Below the pieces are notes generated by a model that did no database searches, was not told the origin of the DNA, and was given only the letters and a program-made list of their open reading frames with translations. A program made the translations under genes and the position numbers. DNA of 64,000 nucleotides from an uncultured Bacilli bacterium (lineage in GTDB: Bacteria > Bacillota_I > Bacilli_A > RF39 > UBA660), in the NCBI GenBank assembly GCA_944371315.1, contig CALVXN010000001.1, positions 2,838 through 66,837 of the forward strand, written 5' to 3'. Below are positions 2-20,644 of this stretch, piece by piece; positions within the stretch are counted from its first letter, which is position 1; each line of letters opens with the position of its first letter.

Positions 2-658
2 TCAAAAGTATATTCTAAAAACAAAACATTCTCAAAACCAAGTGGAGTTATTGAAGTAGAAATAGAAAAAGAAACTATTCCACTTCAATTGGTTAGTGAA
101 TGGACTCCAGAAAATTTAAGATCTATAGAATTATTTAAGGAAGGAACAGAGCCTACTGAAATATCTACAAGATTTGCTAAATTAGATGCACCAACAAATG
201 GTAAATATACATTTAATGGAACAACAGTTAACTTAACATGGACAGGAATAAAAACTCCAGAAGCAATTGATACATCAAATTTACAAACATATTTCAATAC
301 ATACTTTGATAATCATGCAAGTAAATATTATGAACAAAGACTAAATTACAATAATAGTTACGTTGGTAAATTAGGTTATCAAATATTTAAAAAAGAAAGT
401 AATGGTAATTTAACATTTATTGGATCTACTGAAAATACAAATTATTCATTTAATATTAATCCCACAGATTCCGGAACAGTTACTTATGTAGTAAAATCAG
501 CATATACATTATTTACAAGCAATATGAGTGATGGATTAGAAATAAAAGTAAATTTAGGAATGGATTCCAATGTTGGAGACATTGTAGAAGATAATACCGA
601 TGATACAAATAATACAACAGAAAAACCTAATAATAAACCTAATACAGGTTTAGAATAA
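2..658 (+). CDS. C-terminal part of an N/T-rich surface or secreted protein; the ORF is open to the window start, so the 5' end lies outside the window
   Basis: Same frame as track ORF 89..658 with no in-frame stop between nt 2 and 89; track start is an internal TTG; extracellular-type low-complexity composition; hairpin terminator follows. Confidence 0.4.
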   Translation, partial: SKVYSKNKTFSKPSGVIEVEIEKETIPLQLVSEWTPENLRSIELFKEGTEPTEISTRFAKLDAPTNGKYTFNGTTVNLTWTGIKTPEAIDTSNLQTYFNTYFDNHASKYYEQRLNYNNSYVGKLGYQIFKKESNGNLTFIGSTENTNYSFNINPTDSGTVTYVVKSAYTLFTSNMSDGLEIKVNLGMDSNVGDIVEDNTDDTNNTTEKPNNKPNTGLE

Positions 659-662
659 AAAA

Positions 663-696
663 ATATAAGATTAAAATTTTCTTATATTTTTTTTAT
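663..696. terminator. Bidirectional rho-independent terminator between convergent genes
   Basis: ATATAAGA / TCTTATAT 8-bp stem with a 9-nt loop, flanked by A-run upstream and T-run downstream. Confidence 0.55.
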
Positions 697-706
697 TTTC
701 TATATT

Positions 707-2413
707 TTAATACTTTATTCTATATGGATCATTAAGTGAACCAGTGCCACTAACATAAGTAACTGGTGATTTTAAATAAAAAGTATATCTTTCATAATCC
801 GACGTAAAAGCCTCCCCAACTAGATTTATACCACCACTTCCACCAATCGAATAAACCAAACTCAAGCTGTCATTAACATAGCTAAAAGTTAAATCATTTA
901 TTCCCATATTAACCCAACTTCCACTACTTAAATCATTCCAGTTATCATAAGGAAAAGTATAAAAATATTCACTAACATAAATTTTTCCCAATTGACCAGT
1001 CGAATAAGAATTTGAAGGAGCATTAATACCAAACTCATTATCATACCATTCTTTTGCAGTATAACAATTTGAATTATTTAATCCACCAATATACCATTTA
1101 TGTTCAGAAACCATGTTATTATTGATTTCAAATTTTTCATCAGTTGGATAAACAGGCCCTTTTTCACTTAAATAACCCTCGATACGTAAACCATCCCAAG
1201 TTGGTCTCCCATCAACCTCTATATATTTATTTTTAGCAAATCCAATGTAAGAATTTAAAAGAAAAAATCCTCCATTAACAAGTGCATCTCCAAAATACGA
1301 ATCAGTCTTATAATCGTACTTTATCAATTTAATTTCATCATCAAAAACTCCAATAATTCGATATAAATTATCAACAGAGCAACTTTCATCATTTGTATCA
1401 AAACATACATAATTATTTATAAAATTTTCTTTTACATATCCATCGGCAACAGCTTGCATAATTGCATCCCTGTAAGAATTAAAATGAATATTATTATTAT
1501 ATTTTAAAACATAATAATGATCTATTTGTAAATCAATACAACTTAAAATATCGTCATTAGCAACGCAATCCACATTTGCAATGTCAAATACAGTTGGATA
1601 TAAACTAGAATAATCTGGGTTAATTTCAAAGTCTAATCCACTAAATCTATAAGAATAATCTTGAGCTCCATTTAAAAGATTTGAATCATGATAATACAAA
1701 AAATCATCAGTTGTATAACTTTTTGCAACACGACAAGCCAATGTATTACTATTAGTTTCGTTACATATATCAGCAAAAGTAGTTTCATATGCTTTAAGTG
1801 CAATTCCAGCATTAAAAACTTGATTCATAGTATTATTACTAGCGGATTCATCAACCCATAAATATAAATCATAATCTTTAACATTACTATTTAATAATCC
1901 CCAATTCATAATAACATATATATTTGAATAGGAACCTTTAATACCAGACTCTAATTGTTTAATTTCTTCATTATTAAAATCATTTTTACCATCTGTTTGT
2001 TCACCTACAATTCCTTCAAATAAAGGAACTTTATCTCCTTTTAAAGTAATAGCATAATGAATATTTTTAGCATCCATTGTGCTATTTTTTAATACAGATA
2101 AATAAATTTTAAAACCTATATAACCTTGGCAAGAAGAACTTACAGTAAAAGAATAAGGAGTAGTATTTAACCCTCTATTTCTACTCATAGGAAAACTATT
2201 ATTTAAACTTATGGATTTATTCGTATCTGTTAATTTTATTTTAGCACAAGTTGATAAACTAACTTCAGTTACGGAGCTCGAATCTATTTTATTTGACATA
2301 AATGCATAACCAATTCCTAAAACTAATCCTAGAACAAAAAGAACACATATTATTAATAAAATTATAATTCTATATTTCTTACACATATTACTACTACCTA
2401 CTTTCTTTATCAA
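707..2413 (-). CDS. Hypothetical secreted or membrane-anchored protein, 568 aa
   Basis: N-terminal hydrophobic signal-anchor (IIILLIICVLFVLGLVLGIGYAF); Asn/Tyr/Ser-rich; no recognisable catalytic motif. Confidence 0.5.
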   Translation of the reverse strand: MIKKVGSSNMCKKYRIIILLIICVLFVLGLVLGIGYAFMSNKIDSSSVTEVSLSTCAKIKLTDTNKSISLNNSFPMSRNRGLNTTPYSFTVSSSCQGYIGFKIYLSVLKNSTMDAKNIHYAITLKGDKVPLFEGIVGEQTDGKNDFNNEEIKQLESGIKGSYSNIYVIMNWGLLNSNVKDYDLYLWVDESASNNTMNQVFNAGIALKAYETTFADICNETNSNTLACRVAKSYTTDDFLYYHDSNLLNGAQDYSYRFSGLDFEINPDYSSLYPTVFDIANVDCVANDDILSCIDLQIDHYYVLKYNNNIHFNSYRDAIMQAVADGYVKENFINNYVCFDTNDESCSVDNLYRIIGVFDDEIKLIKYDYKTDSYFGDALVNGGFFLLNSYIGFAKNKYIEVDGRPTWDGLRIEGYLSEKGPVYPTDEKFEINNNMVSEHKWYIGGLNNSNCYTAKEWYDNEFGINAPSNSYSTGQLGKIYVSEYFYTFPYDNWNDLSSGSWVNMGINDLTFSYVNDSLSLVYSIGGSGGINLVGEAFTSDYERYTFYLKSPVTYVSGTGSLNDPYRIKY

Positions 2414-2497
2414 TTATAGCAAAGAAAAAAATCGTATGCAACTGCACTTTATTTTTTTGTTATTTATTGATGAGAAAATAACGATGGTGACATTAAA

Positions 2498-2932
2498 ATG
2501 AATATAGAAAATTTTAAAAAAACTAGAATAAAAAAGGGGTTGACTCAAAAACAAATAGCTGACATTTTAAAAGTAAAAAGAGGCACATATGCAAATTGGG
2601 AATGCGGCAACGATTTAATACCAATAAAACAAATACATAATTTAAGTAATTTTTATAAATTGTCTATTGACTATTTACTTGGATTAAATACCAATAATAA
2701 AGTAATAATAATTAATAAAAATGAATTAAATCTTAAACAAATAAGCACAAATTTAAAATACATAAGAAAAAAAGCAAAATTGTCTCAAAAAAATTTTGCT
2801 GAATCTATAAATATAAATCAATCAACATGGTGGGCATATGAAAATGGAAAAACTTTAATTACAACACACACATTAATTGCTATTTATAATAAATATGGAT
2901 ACTCAATTGACTACATACTCAATAATAGTTAA
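2498..2932 (+). CDS. XRE-family transcriptional regulator with two tandem HTH domains
   Basis: Two HTH_3-like segments (LTQKQIADILKVKRGTYANWE and LSQKNFAESININQSTWWAYE). Confidence 0.6.
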   Translation: MNIENFKKTRIKKGLTQKQIADILKVKRGTYANWECGNDLIPIKQIHNLSNFYKLSIDYLLGLNTNNKVIIINKNELNLKQISTNLKYIRKKAKLSQKNFAESININQSTWWAYENGKTLITTHTLIAIYNKYGYSIDYILNNS

Positions 2933-3543
2933 ATTTTTCTATATAAACAATTACCAAACGGACAATTTTTACAATCTGGATTTTGACTTTTACATATATA
3001 TCTACCAAATAAAACTAATTGATGATGAACTCTACTCCACTTATCTTTAGGAAAAAATTTCATTAAATCATTTTCTATTTTTAAAACGTCTTGTTCATTA
3101 GTAATACCTAATCTTTTTGCAACACGTTTAACATGAGTATCAACAGCAATTGCAGGAACATTATAAATATTAGATAAAACAACATTACAAGTTTTTCTTC
3201 CAACACCTGGTAAACTTTCTAAAAAAACTCTATCATTAGGAACAATACCATTATATTTTTCAACTAGTTCTTTAGCAACAATTTGTATATATTCAGCCTT
3301 ACGACGATAAGTTCCAACTGGATATATTATTTTTTCAATGTCTTTTAAATTAGCATTCTTTAGACTAAAAATATCATACTTACTAAATAATATAGAAGTT
3401 ACAGAATTTACTCTTTTATCAGTTGATTGAGCAGATAATATAGTTGCAATTAATAATTCATAATCCTTATTGTAATTTAATTCACAGCGAGCATCAGGAA
3501 ATAAAATATCTAAATTATTTAATATTTTTTTACTATTTTTCAT
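2929..3543 (-). CDS. nth: Endonuclease III, a DNA glycosylase/AP lyase
   Basis: HhH-GPD fold motifs (LPGVGRKTCNVVL) and a C-terminal 4Fe-4S cysteine cluster (CKSQNPDCKNCPFGNC). Confidence 0.85.
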   Translation of the reverse strand: MKNSKKILNNLDILFPDARCELNYNKDYELLIATILSAQSTDKRVNSVTSILFSKYDIFSLKNANLKDIEKIIYPVGTYRRKAEYIQIVAKELVEKYNGIVPNDRVFLESLPGVGRKTCNVVLSNIYNVPAIAVDTHVKRVAKRLGITNEQDVLKIENDLMKFFPKDKWSRVHHQLVLFGRYICKSQNPDCKNCPFGNCLYRKI

Positions 3544-4168
3544 TTAACCAATCAAAATTTAAGATACTAGGTTCAAAAACTTTTTCTTCTCTATCATCTT
3601 TTTTAAATCGATTATTTACTTCCTCAACTGTTTTATATCCTTTTCTATTCCATTCATATAACACTTTATCAATATAACGCATAGTAAAAACTCCATTATA
3701 TACAGCTTCTTTTAAAGCAGCAATTATTAATTCTTCACTAAAACCTTTATCAATCCAAGCATTAATAATCTCACAATCCATCATAGATAAAGTTCTACCA
3801 AACTCTTTTTCAAATATACTAAATATATCATCTTTACTATTTTCTTTCTCAATTAATTTTCTATCATTATTTATTTCATTATAAAAATTATCTAAACATA
3901 CTCTTTCAATAATTTTACCATAGCCATCTTTTTCAGCTTTTACTTTAATTAATTTTTTTTGCATTAAACTACTATATGCTTCTAAAACTTTATTTTCATC
4001 CATATTTAAAGTTTTAGCAATAATTCCAATATCAAAGACTAAATCAAAAGAATTATCAAAATAAAGTAATAATAAAAACTCGTTTAAAGATAAATTTTCT
4101 TTTAAAGCTTCTTTAATAAAAATTGATTCAGCTACAAGTTTTTTATTATCTTTAAACACAATTATCAC
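3533..4168 (-). CDS. dnaD: DnaD-domain replication initiation / membrane attachment protein
   Basis: DnaD-like C-terminal region (IINAWIDKGFSEELIIAALKEAV...YIDKVLYEWNRKG); conserved dnaD-nth adjacency as in Bacillus; 11-nt overlap with nth. Confidence 0.6.
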   Translation of the reverse strand: MIIVFKDNKKLVAESIFIKEALKENLSLNEFLLLLYFDNSFDLVFDIGIIAKTLNMDENKVLEAYSSLMQKKLIKVKAEKDGYGKIIERVCLDNFYNEINNDRKLIEKENSKDDIFSIFEKEFGRTLSMMDCEIINAWIDKGFSEELIIAALKEAVYNGVFTMRYIDKVLYEWNRKGYKTVEEVNNRFKKDDREEKVFEPSILNFDWLNEK

Positions 4169-5235
4169 TTCCTTTTTAATAAATATAATTTAATATCACT
4201 TTTCTTATTTTTCAATTTACCATTTAATATCTCTATGATTAATTGATCATATATTTTGTTAATAATATTTCCAGGTTTAATATTTAATAAGTCCATTATT
4301 TCATTTCCATTTATTTGAATATCTTTTCTATCTTTTATTGGCATTTTTTTATACATTTTATTTATTAATTTAGAATCGACATTTAATATTTCACCTGCTA
4401 CTAAATTAACATATAACCCATAATTAAATAATGTCCAATAATCAATTTTTTTATATTTAACTATCTCAGTAATACTAATTATAGTGCTTTTTTCATTATT
4501 TGTAAATGGTATATCACCGGTTTTTATTTGAGCATAAATTCCCATTAAATCTTTAGTATAATTAAAATCGTTAAATATAATACCTAAATGCTTATCTAAT
4601 TCAAACTCCTTTAATAACTTTACTCCCTCCATATAATTTTCATTTAACAAAATTTTATCTAATTCTTCTCTAATTTTATTTTTTGATACACTATTAATTA
4701 AATTAGCATTTTCTTTAATTCCATTTTTTAATTCATCATTTAAATTAAACTTTAATACTGTAGCAAACCTAATAGCTCGAATAATTCTAGATGGATCTTC
4801 TTTTAAACGTTCATTAGTATTACCTATCATTTTTATAGTTCTATTATTTAAATCATTAATGCCATTTAATAAATCTATTATCTTACCCTTTTTATCCATA
4901 CAAATAGCATTTATAGTAAAATCTCTTCTAATTAAATCTTCTTTTAAATTTTTTACATAATTAATTTTTATGGGTTTTCCATTATTATATTCTTTTTCTT
5001 CTCTGAATGTTGTAATATCTATGTTATAATTATTAATAATTAAATTAACTCCACCATATTTATTAGCATCAACATTAAATATGTTATATATATCTTTAGG
5101 CAAAGCTGAAGTGCAAATATCAACATCAAGAGATTTAACTCCAAGTAATAAATCTCTTACATACCCACCTACTAAATAAGCTTCATAACCATTATATTCT
5201 ATTTTTTCTAATATTTTTTTTATAATTTTATCCAT
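4165..5235 (-). CDS. cca: CCA-adding tRNA nucleotidyltransferase
   Basis: Pol-beta nucleotidyltransferase head motif GGYVRDLLLG...DVDI; 4-nt overlap with dnaD. Confidence 0.75.
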   Translation of the reverse strand: MDKIIKKILEKIEYNGYEAYLVGGYVRDLLLGVKSLDVDICTSALPKDIYNIFNVDANKYGGVNLIINNYNIDITTFREEKEYNNGKPIKINYVKNLKEDLIRRDFTINAICMDKKGKIIDLLNGINDLNNRTIKMIGNTNERLKEDPSRIIRAIRFATVLKFNLNDELKNGIKENANLINSVSKNKIREELDKILLNENYMEGVKLLKEFELDKHLGIIFNDFNYTKDLMGIYAQIKTGDIPFTNNEKSTIISITEIVKYKKIDYWTLFNYGLYVNLVAGEILNVDSKLINKMYKKMPIKDRKDIQINGNEIMDLLNIKPGNIINKIYDQLIIEILNGKLKNKKSDIKLYLLKRK

Positions 5236-5306
5236 TAAATATCACACTTAAATTATATCATAAATATATTTAATTATAATTAAAAATGAATCTTATCACC
5301 TAAGAT

Positions 5307-6221
5307 TCACTTTTTTACTGAAGCATCATATATTTGTTTAATAGTATTACTTAAAATATCAGAATATTCTTCATCATTTTGATTAATACTTAATCCCTCT
5401 AGTAATGCTCTAGAAAAACTAGCAATCATATTTTTATTTAGTTTAAGCAATTCACATGCTTTATTTCTATCATATCCACCAGATAACGCTACTATTCTTA
5501 AAACATTTTTATATTTTAATAAAGGATCATAAAAATTAGGTATATCTGGTAAAGTAAATTTAAAAATAATATAATCTTCTTTATTCATTTTATCCAAATG
5601 CATTAATAATTCTTTTTTTAAATATGTTTCGATATTTTTTTTATCTTTAGAATTAATATCAACTTCTGGTTCTATTATTGGAATTAATCCATAAGAAATT
5701 ATTTTTTTAGCTAACTTAAATTGTTGTTCTACAACTTTTTTAATGCCATATTCATTATATTCTTTAATTACTGAACGCATTTTTGTTCCAACAATTCCAT
5801 AATCTTTTGCTTCTTTTAAAATGTCATCTAAATTATCAATGTCTTTTAATAATTGAACTCCATCAGATTCTTCATCTAACCCCAAATCAATTTTTAAAAA
5901 CGAAACAATTCCTTTATCACTCAAATATTTAACAGTATTTATACCATTAATTTGGCCTTTCATAGTTTTATTAAATAATATAACTCCTAAGATATGTTTA
6001 CTATCAAAATACTTATTACTAATTAATCTACTACGCATTTGATGAATAAAATCAAACATTACATCATCATTAATAATATCTTTTTCTAAAAATCCATAAT
6101 TAACTAATGTTTTTTTGCTACTACCACCACTTTGATCTAATGCAGCAATAAAACCTTTACCTTTTCTTAATCTTTCAATTATATCCACAATTCCACCTTC
6201 TAAACAGTTAAATCTATACAT
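5307..6221 (-). CDS. fda: Fructose-bisphosphate aldolase, class I
   Basis: Strong resemblance to Staphylococcus-type class I FBA (GKGFIAALDQSGGS...IGTKMRS...IIEPEV...LSGGY). Confidence 0.75.
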   Translation of the reverse strand: MYRFNCLEGGIVDIIERLRKGKGFIAALDQSGGSSKKTLVNYGFLEKDIINDDVMFDFIHQMRSRLISNKYFDSKHILGVILFNKTMKGQINGINTVKYLSDKGIVSFLKIDLGLDEESDGVQLLKDIDNLDDILKEAKDYGIVGTKMRSVIKEYNEYGIKKVVEQQFKLAKKIISYGLIPIIEPEVDINSKDKKNIETYLKKELLMHLDKMNKEDYIIFKFTLPDIPNFYDPLLKYKNVLRIVALSGGYDRNKACELLKLNKNMIASFSRALLEGLSINQNDEEYSDILSNTIKQIYDASVKK

Positions 6222-6727
6222 ATTTTTTTGTTTTTCTCTACTATTAATTCTCTGTATTTTACATTACATTTATCAAATAATATTTTTGATGCTTTAAAAT
6301 TATCTTGATCTTTATATTTATCACTTAAATAAATTACTTCTTTTATACCTGATTGTATTATTGCCTTTGCACATTCATTACAAGGAAATAATGCAACATA
6401 AATTTTAGCCCCTTCAAAGTCTCTTTTATGACCTCTAAAATTTAAAATAGCATTAAGTTCAGCATGACAAACATATAAATATTTGGTATTCAAAGCATGC
6501 CCTTCTCTATCCCAAGGAAAATCTTGATCATCAAATCCATTCGGAGTTCCATTATATCCCATAGATAAAATTCTATTATCACTACTTACAATACAAGCAC
6601 CAACTTGTGTTGAAGGATCTTTACTTCTTAAAGCAGATAACTTTGCAATTCCCATAAAATATTCATCCCAAGATAAATAATCTTTTCTATGTTTATTTAT
6701 ACTCACTATATCACATCCTACATACAT
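6200..6727 (-). CDS. comEB: dCMP deaminase (ComEB-type zinc deaminase)
   Basis: Cytidine/deoxycytidylate deaminase zinc motifs HAELNAI and PCNECAKAI; 22-nt overlap with fda. Confidence 0.75.
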   Translation of the reverse strand: MYVGCDIVSINKHRKDYLSWDEYFMGIAKLSALRSKDPSTQVGACIVSSDNRILSMGYNGTPNGFDDQDFPWDREGHALNTKYLYVCHAELNAILNFRGHKRDFEGAKIYVALFPCNECAKAIIQSGIKEVIYLSDKYKDQDNFKASKILFDKCNVKYRELIVEKNKKICIDLTV

Positions 6728-6770
6728 TCTAACAAAATTATTAAATTAAATCTATGTATTTTTCTAAATA

Positions 6771-7784
6771 TTACACTATATCTTCGATTTCTTCTACATA
6801 CGCATATTTATAATCTTTAAACTTATTTAATTTTTCATAAATTTCTTTTGCATAATTAGATATTTCATTAATTCGAATAATTTTATTGTTACATTTAACT
6901 AATGGTATAGTGTTTCTTTTTTTAGTTTCAAAAGATATATAAAAATTATTTAAAGGTTTATTTTCACTATTTTTAATACTTGTAGCATTATTAAAATAAT
7001 TCCATGATTTAAAGTTTTTTGAAAAAATACTACACAAATCATCTTCTTTTTTATTATATAAATCTTCTAATATAATAAGTTTATTGTTGCATGCATTTTT
7101 TACTATTTCAGAAACATATTTCATAACAAATTTATCAGTATTACCTTGTAACTCTTTAGCATAATTAAATACCATATCAACAAAGTTTTCAGCTATTTCA
7201 ACATCATTAAAGCCAATTTCTAATTTACCATCTTCATTTTTTAAAACAATGATATTGTCATAAACATTTTTTATGGCATCTAATGAATGTGTGTGTAACC
7301 AAATATAACAAGTATGTAAAACTCCATCTAATCTATCTGTGCATAACTTTGGTGATTTATTTTCTAAAATATTATAATTATCTAAACAATTTAAATCTTC
7401 TAATGTAATTTTATCATCTTTTAAATAATCGTATAATTCTTCATCCTTTTTTATAATATCAATAATATTTTTTTCAGAAGATTCTTGATTAAGATAATCT
7501 CCAAAAACATAATCAATTGTATGAGCAAAACAAGGTGTTCCTATATCATGAAGTAAAGCCGCAATTGTCTCTTTTTTATTGTGAGTAAAATGCCAAGTCA
7601 TATGAGCAACTACTAAGCTATGATCAAATCTAGTATATAAAAATAATGGTGAATACAATTGCGTATAATCACAACCACAAAATTGAGTTATATGTTTTAA
7701 ACGCTCTAATGTTTTTGTATTTAAATATTTATCAATAAATTTGGGATAATCTTCATCAATAAATAAATTAAGATATTCTTGCAT
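6771..7784 (-). CDS. HD-domain phosphohydrolase, function unknown
   Basis: HD motif H...LLHDIG...D; no HD-GYP or other specialised signature seen. Confidence 0.5.
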   Translation of the reverse strand: MQEYLNLFIDEDYPKFIDKYLNTKTLERLKHITQFCGCDYTQLYSPLFLYTRFDHSLVVAHMTWHFTHNKKETIAALLHDIGTPCFAHTIDYVFGDYLNQESSEKNIIDIIKKDEELYDYLKDDKITLEDLNCLDNYNILENKSPKLCTDRLDGVLHTCYIWLHTHSLDAIKNVYDNIIVLKNEDGKLEIGFNDVEIAENFVDMVFNYAKELQGNTDKFVMKYVSEIVKNACNNKLIILEDLYNKKEDDLCSIFSKNFKSWNYFNNATSIKNSENKPLNNFYISFETKKRNTIPLVKCNNKIIRINEISNYAKEIYEKLNKFKDYKYAYVEEIEDIV

Positions 7785-13700: not shown

Positions 13701-13743
13701 ATTTTCCTCACTTTTGCCTATTATAACAAAAAAGAAAGAAGAA

Positions 13744-14646
13744 TCAAACCTCTTTCAAATAATTTATTGCATTTATCGCAGCATTGGTTCCATCACTTAC
13801 AGCAGTTGTAAGTTGTCTAACTTCCTTTTTTCTTACATCTCCTGCTACAAATATACCATCTATATTTGTTATGCAATCTTCTGATGCTAAAACATAGTTA
13901 TTTTCATCAACCTTTATCAAATCGTTTAAATAATCAATTTCTGGGCTTTGACCAATTGCTAAAAACACACCTTCTACATCCAATCTTTTTTCACATTCAT
14001 TACTTTTTACTTCTACACCTACTAATTCATCATTATCTAAAATATATTTATTAACTGTAGTATTATATAAAACCTCTACATTACTTAATGATAAAACATT
14101 ATCAATTACTTTTTTATCGCCTTTTAATTTAGGACCTCTAACAACTAAATATACTTTATTACATAATTTTGATAAATATAAAACACTATTTAAAGCACTA
14201 TTAGCTCCACCAACAACACAAACATCTTTATTTTTATAAAAAGATCCATCACAAACTGTGCAAAAAGATATTCCATTACCTATTAATTCTTCTTCATTAT
14301 CTAAGTTTAAAGTTTTATATTTAGACCCACTTGCTATAATAATACTTTTAGTTTCATAAGTATTTTCATCAGTAATAACTTTTTTTACTTTTCCATTTTC
14401 TATCGATAAAACTTCTTCAATATTTATTTCTCCCCCCAAATCAATTATTTGTTCATATAAATTATTAGCAAAATCCATACCACTTATAGATTTAAATCCG
14501 GGATAATTTTCAACTTTAGAAGAGGAGGTAATTTTACCTCCTATAGTTTCTTTTTCTAATATAACAACTTTTTTTTCTTCTCTTAAAGCATATATTGCAG
14601 CTGTTAATCCAGCAGGACCAGCTCCAACAATAACAATATCATACAT
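13744..14646 (-). CDS. trxB: Thioredoxin reductase, FAD/NAD(P)H type; start overlaps the nrdD stop (TAATG)
   Basis: IVGAGPAGLTAA FAD motif, redox-active CTVCDG, NADPH motif VVGGANSALNS. Confidence 0.8.
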   Translation of the reverse strand: MYDIVIVGAGPAGLTAAIYALREEKKVVILEKETIGGKITSSSKVENYPGFKSISGMDFANNLYEQIIDLGGEINIEEVLSIENGKVKKVITDENTYETKSIIIASGSKYKTLNLDNEEELIGNGISFCTVCDGSFYKNKDVCVVGGANSALNSVLYLSKLCNKVYLVVRGPKLKGDKKVIDNVLSLSNVEVLYNTTVNKYILDNDELVGVEVKSNECEKRLDVEGVFLAIGQSPEIDYLNDLIKVDENNYVLASEDCITNIDGIFVAGDVRKKEVRQLTTAVSDGTNAAINAINYLKEV

Positions 14647-17036
14647 TATTTGTTACTACCTATATATTTTTTTATATTAGAAACATTAGAATATTTATCT
14701 ATATTTTCACCATTTATTGCTAATAATGTTGGAGCTTGCTTAATACCTAATTTTTTACTTAAATCAGCATTTTCTTCTGCATCAATTATTTCATATTTTA
14801 AATTAGCTTTATCTAAAATACTTTTAGCACTTTTACAATTAGGACAATTCTTTCTTGTAAATAAATATAATCCATCTTTTAAATTATCGTTACATTCACA
14901 ATTATCACATTTGCAATCATCACATTTACAATCATCGCTTTCACATTTTTCATGTTTCAAATGAGATTTACTTAAATCATATACTTTACGATTCTTATAT
15001 TCTTCAGCCTTACCATCATTCCAATTTTTAACTGGACGATAATAACCTGTTATTCTACTATAAACTTCTGTTTCTTTATCACAAATTGGACATTTATATA
15101 CTTCTCCATTTATATATCCATGAGTTTGACAGACTGAATATGTCGGAGACATAGTATAATATGGTAATTTATAATTTTCAGCAATTTTTCTAACTAAATT
15201 AGCAGCTGCCTTCCAGTCAGTTAATCTTTCACCTAAAAATGCATGAAATACAGTTCCTGATGTATATAATGTTTGCAATTCGTCTTGAATATCTAATGCT
15301 GCAAAAATATCATCAGTAAAATCAACTGGTAAATGAGAACTATTTGTATAATATGGTGTATGATCAGGTTCACTAGCAGTTATAATATCAGGATATTGTG
15401 CTTTATCATGTTTAGCAAAACGATAAGTAGTAGATTCTGCTGGTGTTGCTTCTAGATTATACAAATCCCCATATTCTTCTTGATAATCACTAAGTTTTTC
15501 TCTCATAAAGTTTAATACATCTTTAGCAAATTTTTGTGTTTTTTCATGAGTTAAATCAGCACGTAACCATTTTGCATTTAATCCTACTTCATTCATACCT
15601 ATTAAACCAATAGTAGAAAAATGATTATTAAATGAACCTAAATACCGTTTAGTATAAGGATATAAACCTTCATTAAGCAATTTAGTTATAACGTTTCTTT
15701 TTATTTTTAATGAACGTGCAGCTATATCCATTAATTTTTCTAGTCTTTCATAAAAATCTTGTTCATCTTTAGCTAAATAAGCAATTCTTGGTAAATTAAT
15801 AGTTACAACACCTATAGATCCAGTAGATTCACCACTACCAAAGAAACCACCAGATTTTTTACGAAGTTCCCTTAAATCAAGACGCAAACGACAACACATA
15901 CTTCTTACATCACTAGGTTCCATATCACTGTTAATATAGTTTGAAAAATAAGGAGTTCCATATTTTGCAGTCATTTCAAATAATAATTTATTATTTTCTG
16001 TTTCACTCCAATCAAAATCTCTTGTAATAGAATATGTTGGAATAGGATATTGAAATCCTCTACCATTAGCATCTCCTTCAATCATTATTTCAATGAATGC
16101 TTTATTAATCATATCCATTTCTTTTTGACAATCTTTATATTTAAAATCTACTTCTTTTCCTCCAATGATAGCATTTAATTCAGCTAAATCATTTGGAACC
16201 GTCCAATCTAAAGTAATATTAGTAAATGGTGCTTGAGTTCCCCACCTACTTGGAGTGTTAACCCCATAAATAAAAGATTGAATACATTGTTTAACTTCAT
16301 GATAATCTAAATTATCAATCTTAACAAAAGGAGCTAAATAAGTATCAAATGATGAGAATGCTTGAGCACCAGCCCATTCATTTTGCATAATACCTAAAAA
16401 ATTTACCATTTGATTACATAAAGTAGATAAATGCTTTGCAGGTGCAGAAGTAATTTTGCCTGGAACACCACCTAAGCCTTCTTGAATTAATTGTTTTAAA
16501 CTCCATCCAGCACAATATCCTGTTAACATAGATAAGTCATGTAAATGAATAGCAGCACTTCTATGAGCATTAGCAATTTCTTCATCATAAACTTCACTTA
16601 ACCAATAATTTGCAGTAATTGCTCCACTATTACTTAAAATTAATCCACCAACTGAATATGTAACAGTTGAATTTTCTTTAACACGCCAATCAGTTACATT
16701 AATATAACTATTTACAACATCTTTATAATCCAAAACCGTTGATTTCATATTACGCATTTTTTCATGTAACTTACGATATAAGATATATGATTTTGCAACA
16801 TCAGAATACCCAGCTTTAGATAAAACTTCTTCTACACAATCTTGAATATCTTCAACTGAAATTATATTGTCTTTTAACTTTGATTCAAATTCAGAAGTCA
16901 CTTTTAGTGCCAAAAAATCAATAACATTATCATCGTATGTTCTTTCTACTGAATCAAACGCTTTTTTAATTGCTTCCTTAATTTTTAAAATATCAAACCC
17001 TACTATTTTTCCTTCTCTTTTTCTTACTTTATACAT
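14646..17036 (-). CDS. nrdD: Anaerobic (class III) ribonucleoside-triphosphate reductase with N-terminal ATP-cone, C-terminal Cys-rich linker and a fused NrdH/glutaredoxin-like domain
   Basis: ATP-cone (VRKREGKIVGFDILKI...); core motifs AHRSAAIHLHDL, MCCRLRLD; Zn ribbon CQTHGY...CPICD; glycyl radical motif RITGYYRPV; then CESDDCKCDDCKCDNCEC and LYLFTRKNCPNCKSAKSIL...APTLLA. Confidence 0.85.
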   Translation of the reverse strand: MYKVRKREGKIVGFDILKIKEAIKKAFDSVERTYDDNVIDFLALKVTSEFESKLKDNIISVEDIQDCVEEVLSKAGYSDVAKSYILYRKLHEKMRNMKSTVLDYKDVVNSYINVTDWRVKENSTVTYSVGGLILSNSGAITANYWLSEVYDEEIANAHRSAAIHLHDLSMLTGYCAGWSLKQLIQEGLGGVPGKITSAPAKHLSTLCNQMVNFLGIMQNEWAGAQAFSSFDTYLAPFVKIDNLDYHEVKQCIQSFIYGVNTPSRWGTQAPFTNITLDWTVPNDLAELNAIIGGKEVDFKYKDCQKEMDMINKAFIEIMIEGDANGRGFQYPIPTYSITRDFDWSETENNKLLFEMTAKYGTPYFSNYINSDMEPSDVRSMCCRLRLDLRELRKKSGGFFGSGESTGSIGVVTINLPRIAYLAKDEQDFYERLEKLMDIAARSLKIKRNVITKLLNEGLYPYTKRYLGSFNNHFSTIGLIGMNEVGLNAKWLRADLTHEKTQKFAKDVLNFMREKLSDYQEEYGDLYNLEATPAESTTYRFAKHDKAQYPDIITASEPDHTPYYTNSSHLPVDFTDDIFAALDIQDELQTLYTSGTVFHAFLGERLTDWKAAANLVRKIAENYKLPYYTMSPTYSVCQTHGYINGEVYKCPICDKETEVYSRITGYYRPVKNWNDGKAEEYKNRKVYDLSKSHLKHEKCESDDCKCDDCKCDNCECNDNLKDGLYLFTRKNCPNCKSAKSILDKANLKYEIIDAEENADLSKKLGIKQAPTLLAINGENIDKYSNVSNIKKYIGSNK

Positions 17037-17054: not shown

Positions 17055-17744
17055 CTAAGATAAAGCACGAATTTCCATATTGGGAAAACTACCTTTCAAA
17101 TTATCATTTATCATCAAAAGCTCATCATGAGAAAACCCATGCAAACTATGATTAATAACATCATCACTATCTTCAAAATTTTGTAAATAATATTTACATT
17201 TATTTCCAATATATTCACATATTTTTCTTAAATCATCAATTGTATGTAATTCTTTTACTATTGTAGTTCTAAACTCATAATCAATATTACTATTTTTTAA
17301 AATATTTATACTTTCTTCAATATTTTTTAATAATACATTTTTACCTACAGTCATTTTATATTTTAAAAATATATTTTTTATATCCATAGCAACATAATCA
17401 ATTAAATTTTCATCAATTAGTTCTTTTAGAACTTTTGGATTGCTGCCATTAGTATCAAGTTTAACAAGTAAACCTAAATCTTTTATTTTTTTTATAAAGC
17501 ACTTAATATCTTTTTGAACTAATGGTTCACCCCCAGTAATAACAACACCATCTAAAATATTTTTTCTTTTATTTAAGTATTCAAATATTTCAGCTTCACT
17601 AATTTTACCCTTATCACATGGTATTAAACTAGAATTTTGACAAAACGAACAATTAAAATTACAACCCTTAGTAAAAATGGTGCAAGCCACCTTTTTAGGA
17701 AAATCTAATAATGTAACTTTTTGTAATCCTTCAATATAAATCAC
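17055..17744 (-). CDS. nrdG: Anaerobic RNR activating enzyme (radical SAM)
   Basis: Radical-SAM cluster CNFNCSFCQN; size and position immediately upstream of nrdD. Confidence 0.8.
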   Translation of the reverse strand: MIYIEGLQKVTLLDFPKKVACTIFTKGCNFNCSFCQNSSLIPCDKGKISEAEIFEYLNKRKNILDGVVITGGEPLVQKDIKCFIKKIKDLGLLVKLDTNGSNPKVLKELIDENLIDYVAMDIKNIFLKYKMTVGKNVLLKNIEESINILKNSNIDYEFRTTIVKELHTIDDLRKICEYIGNKCKYYLQNFEDSDDVINHSLHGFSHDELLMINDNLKGSFPNMEIRALS

Positions 17745-19717
17745 TTTACCACCACCTTTACTACTTTTACCTTTTCTTTTTCTAATTCCTTTATATAATC
17801 TTTTATTTTAGTTTTATTTCTATCAACATTTAATACTAAATTCAAACTACAAATTTTTTGATATTTTACTATATATTGATATAAAGCTTTATTACTTAAA
17901 TCATTAAACAAACTACTTAAACTAGAATAAAAATCTTTTTTCAAAATCTCTATATTTCCAACCATAGCTTTATCTAATGCTAATAAATTTTTATTTACTG
18001 TTTTTGAACTTTCCTCTGCTAAAATAAAATTTAATTTTAAATCAGATTTATATCTATTTGTTTTTTCTTTCATAAACTCAACAATTTTTAAACCAAAATC
18101 CAATTTAACAACAGCTTTTTCAGAAACATCAAATAAAGCATCTAAACATTCTACCAAACCAGAAAAATTAATACATAAAACCCCATTTTTTAGAACTTTC
18201 CTTACTTTTTGATTACAATCAAGTTTTTTAGAGTCAAACAATATATTATTTTCAAAAATACCATTAAAATTCTCTTTATATAAACTAGATTGAAAATCAT
18301 ATCTTTGTATTAATTCATTTTTAGATAATTCTAATAAATCATCAAGTTCAGCAAAAAAGTCATTTATACTTTCCTTATTATATTTTAATCCTAGCCTAGC
18401 CAAGTTAATTGTAATTGATGAATTAAGTATTCTACCTCGAGATGTTTGTAAATCATTATTAACATTTTCATTAATTATAATTTGATTACTAAACGTTTCT
18501 AAATCATCATCATATTCATTATTATCTAAATATAAAATAATAATATTATTTTTGTTGTAAACCTCATCAACTATATAATCTAATGAAGTATTTTTTTTCA
18601 CCTTACAAATAGTAGCAATATTTTTAAAACTAATTTTGTTTAAAATCTCAAAATATTTTTCTTTAAAATACATTGATTCAAAATCATCCATTTCACTTAA
18701 ACTAATTGACAAAGAAGTATCACTATATTTTAAATAATTATCATTAAAGTTTTTTAATAAAAGTTCAATATTTTTTAACAATTTAGCTTCTATATAATCA
18801 TTAGTTATTCTATATATATCCCAAAAATAATTTTTTATTTTTTCATTTGGTAAAATTGCATCAAAAGCATCAATATTTATTTTAATAGTATTATTCTCAA
18901 CTAATATATTTTTTAAATCATTAAAATCAAAGAATTCATATATTCCTAATACTTTAAAAAAACACTTTAAATTATCCAAAAATTTATTATTAAAATCAGA
19001 AATCATTACATTTTTGTATATTTGATCTAAATTTGAAATAGTTTGTTCACCATATTGTTCACTTTTAAATCTATTTACTATATTTAATATTTTTAAAGTA
19101 ATTTCATCAATATCATTTGATTCGATACTACTAAAATCTAAATGAGATGAAGAAGTGGTTTTTAATGCATAAGATTTTAAATCATCAATATAAATCCTTC
19201 CCTCTTCATGGGCACGAACATATTTTGATTCTAAAAGATAAGCTTTGGCAAATTCCTGAGAAATGGTCTTTCCAAAATTTAACAACAAATCGTCAGGATT
19301 AGCATTCTTAGAATTTTTAGCAGTCAATCCTATTTTTTCAATAGCTTTAACAAACTTATGTTGTTCTTTTACCGAAAAAGCTTCTCTTGAAGCGGCTCTA
19401 CGCAACCGATATTCATTAAATTTTTTATATACATCATGATATCCGGTTTTTTTAAGCACATTTTCAATAATGTCTTGTATATCTTCAACATTAATGGTTT
19501 TTCTATTTTCATAAGATTCAACTATAAATTTTAAAACTTGATTATAAACTCTATTTATTTTTTTTTCATTATTTATTTCGTTTTCATCACTACTATCAAA
19601 AGCTTGTTTAATAGCAACAGCTATTTTAACACTATTAAATGATACTCGTTGACCACTACGTTTAACTACTACTAAATTTTCTAAAACTGTGCTATTTTCC
19701 ATTTCTCTTAACCTCAA
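17741..19717 (-). CDS. NrdD-like paralog: ATP-cone and N-terminal NrdD core homology are retained, but the catalytic Cys pair, Zn ribbon and glycyl-radical motif are absent
   Basis: VVKRSGQRVSFNSVKIAVAIKQAF (ATP cone), EDIQDIIENVL, AHEEGRIYIDDL aligns with nrdD AHRSAAIHLHDL; no CC, CxxC or RxxGY motifs in the remaining 450 aa; ATGA overlap with nrdG. Confidence 0.6.
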   Translation of the reverse strand: MRLREMENSTVLENLVVVKRSGQRVSFNSVKIAVAIKQAFDSSDENEINNEKKINRVYNQVLKFIVESYENRKTINVEDIQDIIENVLKKTGYHDVYKKFNEYRLRRAASREAFSVKEQHKFVKAIEKIGLTAKNSKNANPDDLLLNFGKTISQEFAKAYLLESKYVRAHEEGRIYIDDLKSYALKTTSSSHLDFSSIESNDIDEITLKILNIVNRFKSEQYGEQTISNLDQIYKNVMISDFNNKFLDNLKCFFKVLGIYEFFDFNDLKNILVENNTIKINIDAFDAILPNEKIKNYFWDIYRITNDYIEAKLLKNIELLLKNFNDNYLKYSDTSLSISLSEMDDFESMYFKEKYFEILNKISFKNIATICKVKKNTSLDYIVDEVYNKNNIIILYLDNNEYDDDLETFSNQIIINENVNNDLQTSRGRILNSSITINLARLGLKYNKESINDFFAELDDLLELSKNELIQRYDFQSSLYKENFNGIFENNILFDSKKLDCNQKVRKVLKNGVLCINFSGLVECLDALFDVSEKAVVKLDFGLKIVEFMKEKTNRYKSDLKLNFILAEESSKTVNKNLLALDKAMVGNIEILKKDFYSSLSSLFNDLSNKALYQYIVKYQKICSLNLVLNVDRNKTKIKDYIKELEKEKVKVVKVVVK

Positions 19718-19917
19718 ATTAATTATAACAAACCGTCATATAATTGCAATGTTTTTTTTTGCCATTTTTTTAACATTTTTTTATTTTTTTAAATTTTATC
19801 TTTAATTTTTAGTAAAAAAAACATTTTAAATATATTGTAAATCTATGTAAATATTATACAAATAAATTACATATTTTAACAAATAATAAAATTCAAATAA
19901 CTTACAAAAAATTTTAC

Positions 19918-19964: not shown

Positions 19965-20041
19965 GGCGATGTAGCTCAGTTGGCTAGAGCATCCGGTTCA
20001 TACCCGGCAGGTCGTGTGTTCGAATCACACCGTCGCTACCA
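19965..20041 (+). tRNA. tRNA with CAT anticodon (Met, initiator or Ile-lysidine not distinguishable)
   Basis: GGCGATGTAGCTCAGTTGGCTAGAGCATCCGGTTCATACCCGG..GTGTGTTCGAATCACACCGTCGCTACCA, 77 nt with encoded CCA. Confidence 0.85.
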
Positions 20042-20052
20042 AATTAAAATTT

Positions 20053-20076
20053 ACTAGACATATGTCTAGTTTTTTA
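20053..20076 (+). terminator. Intrinsic terminator after tRNA
   Basis: Perfect palindrome ACTAGACATATGTCTAGT followed by TTTTT. Confidence 0.7.
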
Positions 20077-20179: not shown

Positions 20180-20644
20180 ATGAATTTTGGGAAAAAAATA
20201 TTAGATGCAAGAAAAAAAGCTAATTTATCTCAAGAAGAAATAGCAGAAAAATTAAATATTACAAGACAAACCGTATCAAAATGGGAATCAAATGAAACAG
20301 TCCCAAACATTAACCAAGTTAAATTATTAGCAAAAATATATAAAATTTCATTAGAAGAATTATTAAACTATAATAAAATAGATGAAGAAATAGAAAGCAT
20401 AATAAAAAAAACTAATACAAAAACTCAAGATAAAATAAATTGGACAAAAGTATGGAGTAAAAAATATCCTATTTTAGAAACATATCAAAATAAAGTAAAC
20501 ATAAAAAAATACGAAAATTATTTAAATAATATATTAACTGAACTACAAACAAAATATAATTATAACCGTTTAGATGCAATGTTAGTATTAAAAGATATTT
20601 TAGCACATTCATGGAATAAAAATAATGGTGAGAAAAATGATTAA
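20180..20644 (+). CDS. XRE-family HTH protein with a C-terminal extension
   Basis: N-terminal HTH_3 (LSQEEIAEKLNITRQTVSKWES); good RBS AAAAGGTGATAAA before the ATG. Confidence 0.6.
   Translation: MNFGKKILDARKKANLSQEEIAEKLNITRQTVSKWESNETVPNINQVKLLAKIYKISLEELLNYNKIDEEIESIIKKTNTKTQDKINWTKVWSKKYPILETYQNKVNIKKYENYLNNILTELQTKYNYNRLDAMLVLKDILAHSWNKNNGEKND

Follow-up and report, generated by a model that had tools for sequence, protein, structure and literature searches.

Why would a bacterium keep a long, intact gene for a protein that resembles the class III ribonucleotide reductase (RNR) NrdD and has none of its catalytic residues? The question is raised by a stretch of 64,000 nucleotides (the window) from an uncultured Bacilli bacterium (GenBank assembly GCA_944371315.1, contig CALVXN010000001.1), where a gene we call psiD, with its product psiNrdD, lies directly upstream of genes for the NrdG activase and a catalytic NrdD. 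We found that psiNrdD is, with high probability, a non-catalytic NrdD derivative maintained by selection and centred on its ATP-cone. The fuller reading, a conserved pseudoenzyme acting as a non-catalytic (d)ATP-sensing accessory subunit of class III RNR, stands at about even chances in our judgment.

Gene model, fold and family assignment

The psiD open reading frame (ORF) runs uninterrupted on the minus strand at 17741..19717, 658 amino acids (aa) from the first TTG at 19717 to a TGA stop at 17741-17743. The initial annotation had reported this ORF, and it is indeed intact, but the most likely start is the ATG at 19702, giving a coding sequence of 653 aa (17741..19702, minus strand). We favour this start because GAGGT is located 8 nt upstream of it and because P0001 (98% identical) is likewise 653 aa long, as are 14 of the 15 members listed for its cluster. 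Residue numbers below (K19, aa 16-107 and others) use the 658-aa numbering from the TTG. The last ~450 aa had also been called Asn/Lys-rich; the Asn plus Lys content of 22.5% is only slightly above the 15-20% of the neighbouring genes, in a genome of about 23% GC. An ortholog of psiNrdD is named 'hypothetical protein' at NCBI and NrdD at JGI, so metabolic reconstructions of uncultured gut Bacilli may miscount reductases.

Profile searches bore out the N-terminal ATP-cone that had been proposed, with a Pfam match to PF03477 at aa 16-107 (19397..19672, minus strand; 53.8 bits against a cut-off of 25.8, 2.9e-14), and they extended the likeness to NrdD far past it. The NRDD family (PF13597) matched aa 138-598 with 97.5 bits (cut-off 26.2, 1e-27), covering profile positions 6-440 of 562; the missing ~120 C-terminal positions hold the Zn ribbon and the glycyl-radical loop. 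Within NCBIfam, psiNrdD fell below the curated NrdD equivalog cut-offs, with PRK07111 (NF005497) as the best model at 186 bits (cut-off 764) and TIGR02487 at 91 bits (cut-off 326).

An AlphaFold (AF2) model built with 38 orthologs in the alignment had a predicted local distance difference test score (pLDDT) of 86.6 and a predicted template modelling score (pTM) of 0.76. The top Foldseek matches in the PDB were Prevotella copri NrdD structures (8p27, 8p39; E-values 1e-22 down to 3e-29), followed by the NrdDs of S. thermophilus, T4 and T. maritima. The psiNrdD core aligned to P. copri NrdD with a template modelling (TM) score up to 0.79, a root-mean-square deviation of about 4 A and 17-19% identity. 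The alignment to NrdD kept a collinear order from the cone through the final barrel strand, ending where the Zn ribbon would begin. The model thus predicts an ATP-cone followed by a complete NrdD-type ten-stranded alpha/beta barrel. The two are joined by a region (aa 108-185; 19163..19396, minus strand) comprising the connector, the first core helix alphaA and a degenerate HxHD strand (IYIDD), which is the slowest-evolving part of psiD and the site where the NxN flap is deleted. The remainder (aa 186-658; 17744..19162, minus strand) was assigned as a dead NrdD alpha/beta barrel from the motif table, the model and the Foldseek matches. The N-terminal core block AHEEGRIYIDDL, set against AHRSAAIHLHDL of NrdD, aligned as the initial annotation had described, but the similarity is not confined to that block, as had been supposed, and spans the whole barrel.

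Lost catalytic sites and the retained ATP-cone

Losses were read from an alignment of 80 psiD orthologs with five PRK07111-type NrdDs of the same bacterial lineage, onto which P. copri residue numbers were transferred (the PDB chain runs +4 relative to the published numbering). The NxN flap and the beta-hairpin of the specificity site (s-site) are deleted. The HxHD motif has become YxD/H across the orthologs, the bottom Cys is lost (TTTC to TTSS), and so is the thiyl-radical finger (YMGCRTR to FSNQI). Asn298 (P. copri numbering), loop 2 and the TPAEG phosphate loop are gone, and the C terminus falls just short of the Zn ribbon, so that the glycyl-radical domain is likewise absent. The absence of a catalytic Cys pair, a CxxC and an RxxGY motif had been noted before, and our re-check turned up nothing overlooked: no CxxC or RxxG[YF] occurs in the psiNrdD protein of the window, and no conserved Cys was found at the bottom or thiyl columns across the 80 orthologs or about 95 psiD-like representatives. 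The sole semi-conserved Cys, C524, corresponds to the structural Cys of GLAEC. Judging from these alignments, psiNrdD has lost all elements for radical chemistry, substrate binding and specificity-effector binding.

The ATP-cone presented the opposite picture. Residues K19, R20 and Y103 within the cone, R107 at its end and R111 just past it correspond to K7, R8, Y83, R87 and R91 of P. copri NrdD, which hold two dATP, and all five are invariant in the family alignment (A1). We also read out 25 diagnostic positions (20 catalytic plus the cone positions) for all long representatives. True NrdDs carried NNHHDCNRQCRNTPECCC(GY)+KRYRR, while the psiD-like representatives kept KRYRR at the cone and were essentially random or gapped at the 20 catalytic positions, with four single-residue exceptions. 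Because every nucleotide-contacting residue is invariant and the catalytic and specificity sites have been wiped out, the alignments strongly back the ATP-cone as the functional core retained by psiD, as the initial annotation had suggested. By the Pfam threshold and the KRYRR ligands psiNrdD is classed as an ATP-cone protein, with nucleotide binding itself a prediction.

Conservation and selection

Conservation in relatives had been proposed as a check, and the searches recovered it. In a word-indexed search, full-length relatives (623-677 aa) were recovered at identities as low as 39%. When 1.84 billion representatives were searched exhaustively with a profile, 296 matched below 1e-30, about 95 of them psiD-like and 560-730 aa long (counted as representatives, or clusters, at 50% identity). 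A one-genome-per-species scan gave 257 matches; psiD was intact in 76 of the 80 loci kept, almost all of which came from metagenome-assembled genomes (MAGs) of uncultured gut 'Bacilli/Tenericutes/Mollicutes'. Carriers include Mycoplasma sp. CAG:776, Clostridium sp. CAG:1193 and Ca. Avacholeplasma. Throughout the 64 complete cassettes the psiD ORF measured 635-690 aa, and it was full-length in 14 of the 15 listed population variants from the species of the window. A neighbour-joining tree of the representatives was star-like with long branches, and its sole use was to place the window protein inside one large psiD clade.

Identity and dN/dS (the ratio of nonsynonymous to synonymous substitution rates, by the Nei-Gojobori method) were calculated pairwise over the 64 complete cassettes plus the window. 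Mean aa identity was 42% for whole psiD (cone 61%, connector 54%, barrel 35%), 56% for nrdG, 56% for the thioredoxin-reductase-like gene of the cassette (trxR) and 82% for nrdD. The corresponding dN/dS values, approximate since dS exceeds 1 (saturated) for most pairs and the pairs are non-independent, were 0.16 for whole psiD (cone 0.08, connector 0.04, barrel 0.22), 0.15 for nrdG, 0.18 for trxR and 0.06 for nrdD. The sole unsaturated pair, the window and L005, had a dS of 0.05 and an omega of 0.12 from few substitutions. The gene evolves about three times faster than nrdD, yet because its dN/dS is far below 1 the sequences indicate that it is clearly maintained by purifying selection, concentrated on the cone, the connector and alphaA. 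The comparison with functional nrdD that had been proposed as a check (0.16 against 0.06) therefore agrees with a retained gene, as had been argued, and not with a decaying duplicate.

The fast rate, together with the occurrence in the same lineage of split NrdDs that have a separate glycyl-radical peptide, could still suggest that psiD is either a functionless duplicate in decay or a working reductase whose radical or Cys is supplied in trans. We regard this pair of explanations as scarcely credible. Decay sits poorly with intact genes in 76 of 80 loci, about 95 clusters at 50% identity and a dN/dS well below 1. The idea of a split enzyme served by a trans-acting glycyl-radical peptide was rejected, since real split large subunits retain all catalytic motifs, including NNHHDCNRQCRNTPE and the Zn-ribbon Cys, and psiD has none of them.

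Ninety-two columns were conserved at 90% or more among the orthologs, with 62 of them in the first 185 aa. The parental (PRK07111-type) residue was kept in 84 of the 92 (cone 43 of 45, connector 17 of 17, barrel 24 of 30), and no new conserved Cys, His or acidic cluster was seen among the conserved columns of the barrel, giving no indication that a new active site has arisen. These counts bear on whether the barrel gained a ligand-binding or catalytic role unrelated to ribonucleotide reduction. Purifying selection on the barrel (dN/dS about 0.22), its confidently folded model and the location of distant psiD-like proteins beside feoAB or lplA-gcv would suit such a role. We nevertheless consider it very unlikely, with 24 of the 30 conserved barrel columns still parental, no new cluster of candidate active-site residues, and conservation concentrated in the cone and connector.

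Relationship to the PRK07111-type NrdDs

An origin by duplication of NrdD had been proposed, which holds as far as psiD is NrdD-derived; its source, however, is a different subfamily from that of the adjacent nrdD. Compared with the PRK07111-type NrdD of locus L084, psiNrdD was 56% identical in the cone, 59% in the connector plus alphaA and 26% in the barrel, against 41%, 17% and 19% for the adjacent NrdD fused to a glutaredoxin-like domain (NrdD::Grx). L084 belongs to MAG CALVZO01, which also holds a psiD locus 98% identical to the window (L006). The sequence comparisons place psiD as a descendant of the PRK07111 (P. copri-type) NrdD lineage. We rejected a recent duplication of the adjacent nrdD, with PRK07111 and not PRK08270 as the best family and only 17-19% identity beyond the cone. 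Those psiDs located beside other NrdD types keep the PRK07111-like connector and alphaA, with no drift toward the sequence of the neighbour.

Operon organization and genomic context

The gene downstream of psiD, nrdG (17055..17744, minus strand), encodes a 229-aa NrdG2-type activase (TIGR02495, 222 bits, cut-off 131). It is followed by the catalytic nrdD (14646..17036, minus strand), which encodes a 796-aa protein of the PRK08270 type (NF006126, 1152 bits, cut-off 548) with its own ATP-cone, intact catalytic motifs, and CxxC and RxxGY present. The C terminus of this NrdD is a glutaredoxin-like domain (CPNC; Pfam Glutaredoxin at aa 725-772), preceded by a Cys-rich linker (CESDDCKCDDCKCDNCEC). 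The last gene of the cassette is trxR (13744..14646, minus strand), a thioredoxin-reductase-like flavoprotein gene (TIGR01292, 321 bits, narrowly below its cut-off of 343). A hairpin with a T-run at 13734..13756, the strongest terminator-like site on the minus strand, marks the putative operon end; the only other such site between psiD and trxR is a weak 5-pair stem within the psiD coding sequence (19393..19380). Because a promoter-like site precedes psiD and the strongest terminator-like site follows trxR, the four genes look like one operon.

The order psiD-nrdG-nrdD::Grx-trxR was kept in the 64 fetched loci with a sufficiently long contig, with trxR in fourth position in each, which upholds the earlier placement of psiD as first cistron of the nrdG-nrdD operon. 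The overlap between the psiD stop and the nrdG start is real too, but it reads GTGA, with a GTG start at 17744, and not ATGA as first described. A Shine-Dalgarno-like run (AAGGTGGTGG) lies within the psiD 3' end ahead of nrdG. Across all 65 cassettes (64 loci plus the window) the psiD/nrdG junction ranged from -77 to +7 nt, 25 of these being 4-nt overlaps, and we predict that psiD is translationally coupled to nrdG.

Such coupling raises the alternative that psiNrdD, produced together with the activase, helps NrdG to install the glycyl radical, whether on NrdD or on a free 51-aa glycyl-radical peptide, and serves as its scaffold, chaperone or gate. The stop/start overlap or gap of at most 7 nt in every cassette, the nrdG Shine-Dalgarno sequence embedded in psiD, and a barrel that keeps a confidently modelled finger-loop region all speak for it. 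Activases, however, recognise the glycyl-radical domain, which psiNrdD lacks; the psiD-nrdG adjacency differs in L047, L087 and L089; and the alternative leaves the top conservation of the ATP-cone unexplained. On balance we consider it improbable.

These three loci have other arrangements. L047 has the order psiD, unsplit PRK07111-type nrdD and short nrdG. The deeper-branching psiD of L087 is divergent from a Grx-less PRK08270-type nrdD followed by nrdG, while that of L089 is divergent from an nrdD of a third type, which has nrdG and a dUTPase gene behind it. From gene order, the recurrent link of psiD appears to be with class III RNR operons in general and not with one NrdD subtype.

Some further features of the surrounding DNA were recorded. 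The nrdD::Grx fusion was conserved in the 64 loci, with the Grx-less ortholog in L087; together with the dedicated trxR-like gene, NrdD::Grx would amount to a thiol-dependent class III RNR that is self-contained. The XRE-type helix-turn-helix (HTH) gene upstream of psiD (20180..20644) was rejected as a conserved partner, its linkage being only sporadic. A tRNA-Met (CAT) gene lies at 19965-20041 on the plus strand, between the psiD promoter region and the HTH gene, and is followed by a perfect palindrome with a 7-bp stem (ACTAGACATATGTCTAGT, 20053-20070) that is probably a bidirectional terminator. On the Ca. Avacholeplasma-like contig of L001, several DDE transposase genes flank the four-gene cassette on both sides (281-7169; 14074-15384), and this cassette might be mobile as a unit.

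Promoter and operator upstream of psiD

A consensus scan located a sigma-70-like promoter with an extended -10 at 19722..19749 on the minus strand (TTGCAA-16 nt-TGtTATAAT; 10 of 12 matches plus TG), and the positions of its -35 and -10 elements were conserved in 49 species. An operator-like inverted repeat at 19747..19825 (minus strand) overlaps it, with the arm AATGTTTTTTTT at 19825..19814, a fixed spacer, and the arm AAAAAAAAACATTG at 19760..19747; the TTG of this second arm is the start of the -35 hexamer. Family-wide the first arm is AATGTTTTTTTT and the second is written AAAAAAAACATTG. The outer span was 78-79 bp in 32 of 36 strict cases, and the spacer often contained AATGTAAA or AAATGTTCGnTTTACA.

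The pattern AATGT6-N50-64-A6CATT matched once in the 64-kb window, where 0 matches were expected. Among the 89 fetched loci it was present in 49, lying directly upstream of psiD (loci among L001-L084) or of a split nrdD (L080, L083, L084), five coding matches aside. These five, second copies that fall within psiD itself in L013 and L015-L018, were rejected as a coding coincidence (MFFK...EKT). No canonical NrdR boxes were found upstream of psiD in 61 loci at a threshold of at least 12 of 16 matches with 30-33 bp spacing, and no NrdR gene, nor any ATP-cone other than those noted here, was found within the window. The sequences thus indicate an operator that is not an NrdR-box pair and that is common to the psiD operon and the split nrdD operon.

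An operator of this kind suggests another alternative, in which psiNrdD is itself a dATP/ATP-responsive expression factor, comparable to NrdR, that acts at the AATGT8...A8CATTG operator or on the mRNA. Both nrd operons are preceded by the conserved, strictly spaced repeat over the -35, no canonical NrdR-box pairs were found before psiD in 61 loci, the divergent orientation of psiD and nrdD-nrdG in two lineages (L087, L089) is typical of regulators, and NrdR likewise uses an ATP-cone (PMC12051234). The protein itself fits the part poorly: neither Pfam nor NCBIfam detected a nucleic-acid-binding domain such as a Zn ribbon or HTH, the net charge comes to 0, and the sequence outside the cone and connector changes quickly while the DNA motif is nearly invariant. 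We judge a direct role in expression to be as improbable as a role in assisting NrdG.

Proposed role and possible partners

ATP-cones turn occupancy by ATP or by dATP into differing oligomeric contacts. In P. copri NrdD the dATP-loaded cones pair, and the tetramer has them docked on barrel helices 458-485 and 550-569 (PMC11226230); in the S. thermophilus enzyme, the cones dimerise under dATP and thereby restrain the connector and the flap (PMC12662201). The NxN flap, which is the cis output route in both enzymes, is deleted in psiD. Since the cone is invariant and this route is gone, we infer that its output must go in trans. The psiNrdD cone would bind ATP or dATP, and the dATP/ATP ratio would change its oligomeric contacts as in other ATP-cone proteins. 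These contacts may be cone-cone or cone-barrel, formed with a catalytic NrdD or with psiNrdD itself, or possibly between psiNrdD dimers and NrdD dimers. The dead barrel would serve as a structural body that positions the cone. In the psiNrdD helix at aa 448-477, the counterpart of P. copri 458-485, the columns of F454, L458, K466, L469 and E474 were at least 90% conserved, which is compatible with docking of a cone on the barrel, short of proof. As a trans-acting regulatory or accessory subunit, psiNrdD would tune dNTP (deoxyribonucleoside triphosphate) synthesis, the activity of NrdD, or its activation. By analogy with these enzymes we consider such a trans-regulatory mechanism plausible, a little below even chances.

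The catalytic partner could be sought in two places, with kinship and the shared operator pointing to the PRK07111-type enzyme and operon position pointing to NrdG2 and NrdD::Grx. If the former, psiNrdD might be the obligate inactive half of a heterodimer with a split PRK07111-type NrdD encoded elsewhere, paired through alphaA/alphaB and with the cones pairing, an arrangement like that of Rnr4 with Rnr2. Its descent from the PRK07111 lineage agrees with this, as does the stronger likeness of the cone (56%) and connector plus alphaA (59%) than of the barrel (26%) to that enzyme in the same species, alphaA and alphaB being the helices that build the class III dimer interface (PMC4493059). P. copri NrdD, moreover, has just one active monomer at a time (PMC11226230). 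MAG CALVZO01 holds both the psiD cassette (L006) and a split PRK07111-type nrdD (L084), the psiD of L047 lies directly upstream of a PRK07111-type nrdD, and one operator is common to both operons. We still regard an obligate heterodimer as unlikely. Most genomes couple psiD translationally to the NrdG2 and NrdD::Grx system, co-occurrence was seen in CALVZO01 and L047 only, and psiD no longer has the elements that signal between the two halves of the dimer (the s-site hairpin and loop 2). The N-terminal likeness, too, could reflect a shared nucleotide-binding constraint alone.

Several observations weigh against the accessory-subunit reading itself. The co-transcribed NrdD::Grx has its own ATP-cone, so that a cone supplied in trans is not obviously needed. 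A barrel-barrel heterodimer of psiNrdD with this NrdD is doubtful, because the psiNrdD connector and alphaA are 59% identical to the PRK07111 type against 17% to the operon's own enzyme, without adaptation to other neighbours. The mean barrel identity of about 35%, compared with 82% for nrdD, argues against a large conserved barrel interface. Three psiD-like proteins adjoin no nrd gene, one from the main clade (P0319) and two more distant (P0312, P0337). The dN/dS values carry the saturation described above, and the oligomeric and binding behaviour of psiNrdD is a prediction from sequence and model.

A more specific form of the accessory-subunit reading can be offered only tentatively, and with less confidence than the trans-regulatory mechanism in general. 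Here psiNrdD would be a kind of RNR regulator not recognised before, a dead catalytic-subunit paralog with a two-nucleotide ATP-cone as its single live part. It would deliver overall-activity control by dATP/ATP in trans to one or both class III reductases of the cell through nucleotide-driven hetero-oligomerisation. Combined with the split NrdD, its glycyl-radical peptide and a shared operator not of the NrdR type, psiNrdD would constitute a lineage-specific dNTP-control module in gut Bacilli of reduced genome.

Comparison with known systems

The closest likeness is to P. copri NrdD (PDB 8p23/8p27; PRK07111), with the same domain order and fold (TM up to 0.79), the same two-nucleotide ATP-cone ligand residues and a connector/alphaA of the same sequence family. 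Unlike psiNrdD, it has the NxN flap, HxHD, both active-site Cys, the s-site hairpin, loop 2, TPAEG, the Zn ribbon and the glycyl-radical domain. In yeast, the class I RNR small subunit Rnr2 has a catalytically inactive paralog, Rnr4, whose heterodimerisation is proven. Both Rnr4 and psiNrdD are dead RNR-subunit paralogs that lost catalytic residues, are retained under purifying selection and presumably need an active enzyme. The two differ in that Rnr4 belongs to another RNR class, derives from the radical-generator subunit and has no ATP-cone, and in that a pairing of psiNrdD is hypothetical.

NrdR, a repressor of nrd operons composed of a Zn ribbon and an ATP-cone, is the paradigm of nucleotide-dependent oligomerisation (PMC12051234). 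Like psiNrdD it is a stand-alone, non-catalytic ATP-cone protein, and it is dedicated to RNR control, whereas psiNrdD has no Zn ribbon or DNA-binding domain, is four times larger and does not match the NrdR model. The radical-generating subunit NrdB of Leeuwenhoekiella blandensis reportedly carries an ATP-cone that acts through dATP-driven oligomerisation. There too the cone sits on a polypeptide other than the catalytic one, but its carrier is an active class I subunit and not a dead class III barrel.

To our knowledge, every known ATP-cone belongs either to an RNR subunit that is active or to the repressor NrdR. Full-text literature searches returned no description of an NrdD pseudoenzyme lacking the glycyl-radical domain. 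If the accessory-subunit reading is true, psiNrdD would represent a third route coupling dATP/ATP sensing to dNTP synthesis and, judging by the literature searched, the first pseudoenzyme to be described for the glycyl-radical enzyme superfamily. As a family, psiNrdD is an RNR-derived pseudoenzyme in which the allosteric domain alone has been kept intact, and it is widespread in one bacterial radiation.

Split NrdD and other NrdD-related proteins

The split class III RNR was observed at L084:2085-5087 (MAG CALVZO01) and also in L079, L080 and L083. Its large subunit (756-766 aa, PRK07111 type, 994 bits, model positions 4-715 of 746) retains every catalytic motif and terminates inside the Zn ribbon (...CPRCGRRDFEGVPVEVINHLDCNC*). 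It is followed by a ribosome-binding site and a 51-aa ORF (MEAVKKVKTVGEGVGFEHIRRITGYLVGTTDRFNNAKRCEEKDRVKHTGVK) that covers model positions 711-744 with the RxxGY glycyl-radical motif, and then by a 184-aa NrdG. The best 120 relatives of the large subunit were all 753-765 aa long, with 75-100% identity. A 2026 review grants small glycyl-radical 'spare-part' proteins only to formate lyases (PMC13450708), and a split NrdD with a stand-alone 51-aa glycyl-radical peptide therefore appears to be undescribed. We consider this split enzyme with its free peptide, and likewise the shared operator, at least as interesting as psiNrdD.

The three psiD-like proteins outside nrd operons differed in what they retained. 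P0312 (L085:5219-7411, 730 aa), beside feoAB, keeps the NxN motif and the Zn-ribbon Cys and has no catalytic Cys. P0337 (L086:6001-8091, 696 aa) keeps NxN and TP, and its gene overlaps lplA upstream of glycine-cleavage genes. P0319 (L088:2908-5046) belongs to the main psiD clade. These three may be intermediate or independent inactivations.

Ten further NrdD homologs of 850-1116 aa (P0327, P0342, P0347, P0361, P0364, P0369, P0375-P0377 and P0381) had complete catalytic signatures, and none of them ends in the usual glycyl-radical tail. Five (P0327, P0342, P0347, P0375, P0377) stop inside or just after the Zn ribbon. These long homologs may be further split forms with large insertions, possibly inteins.

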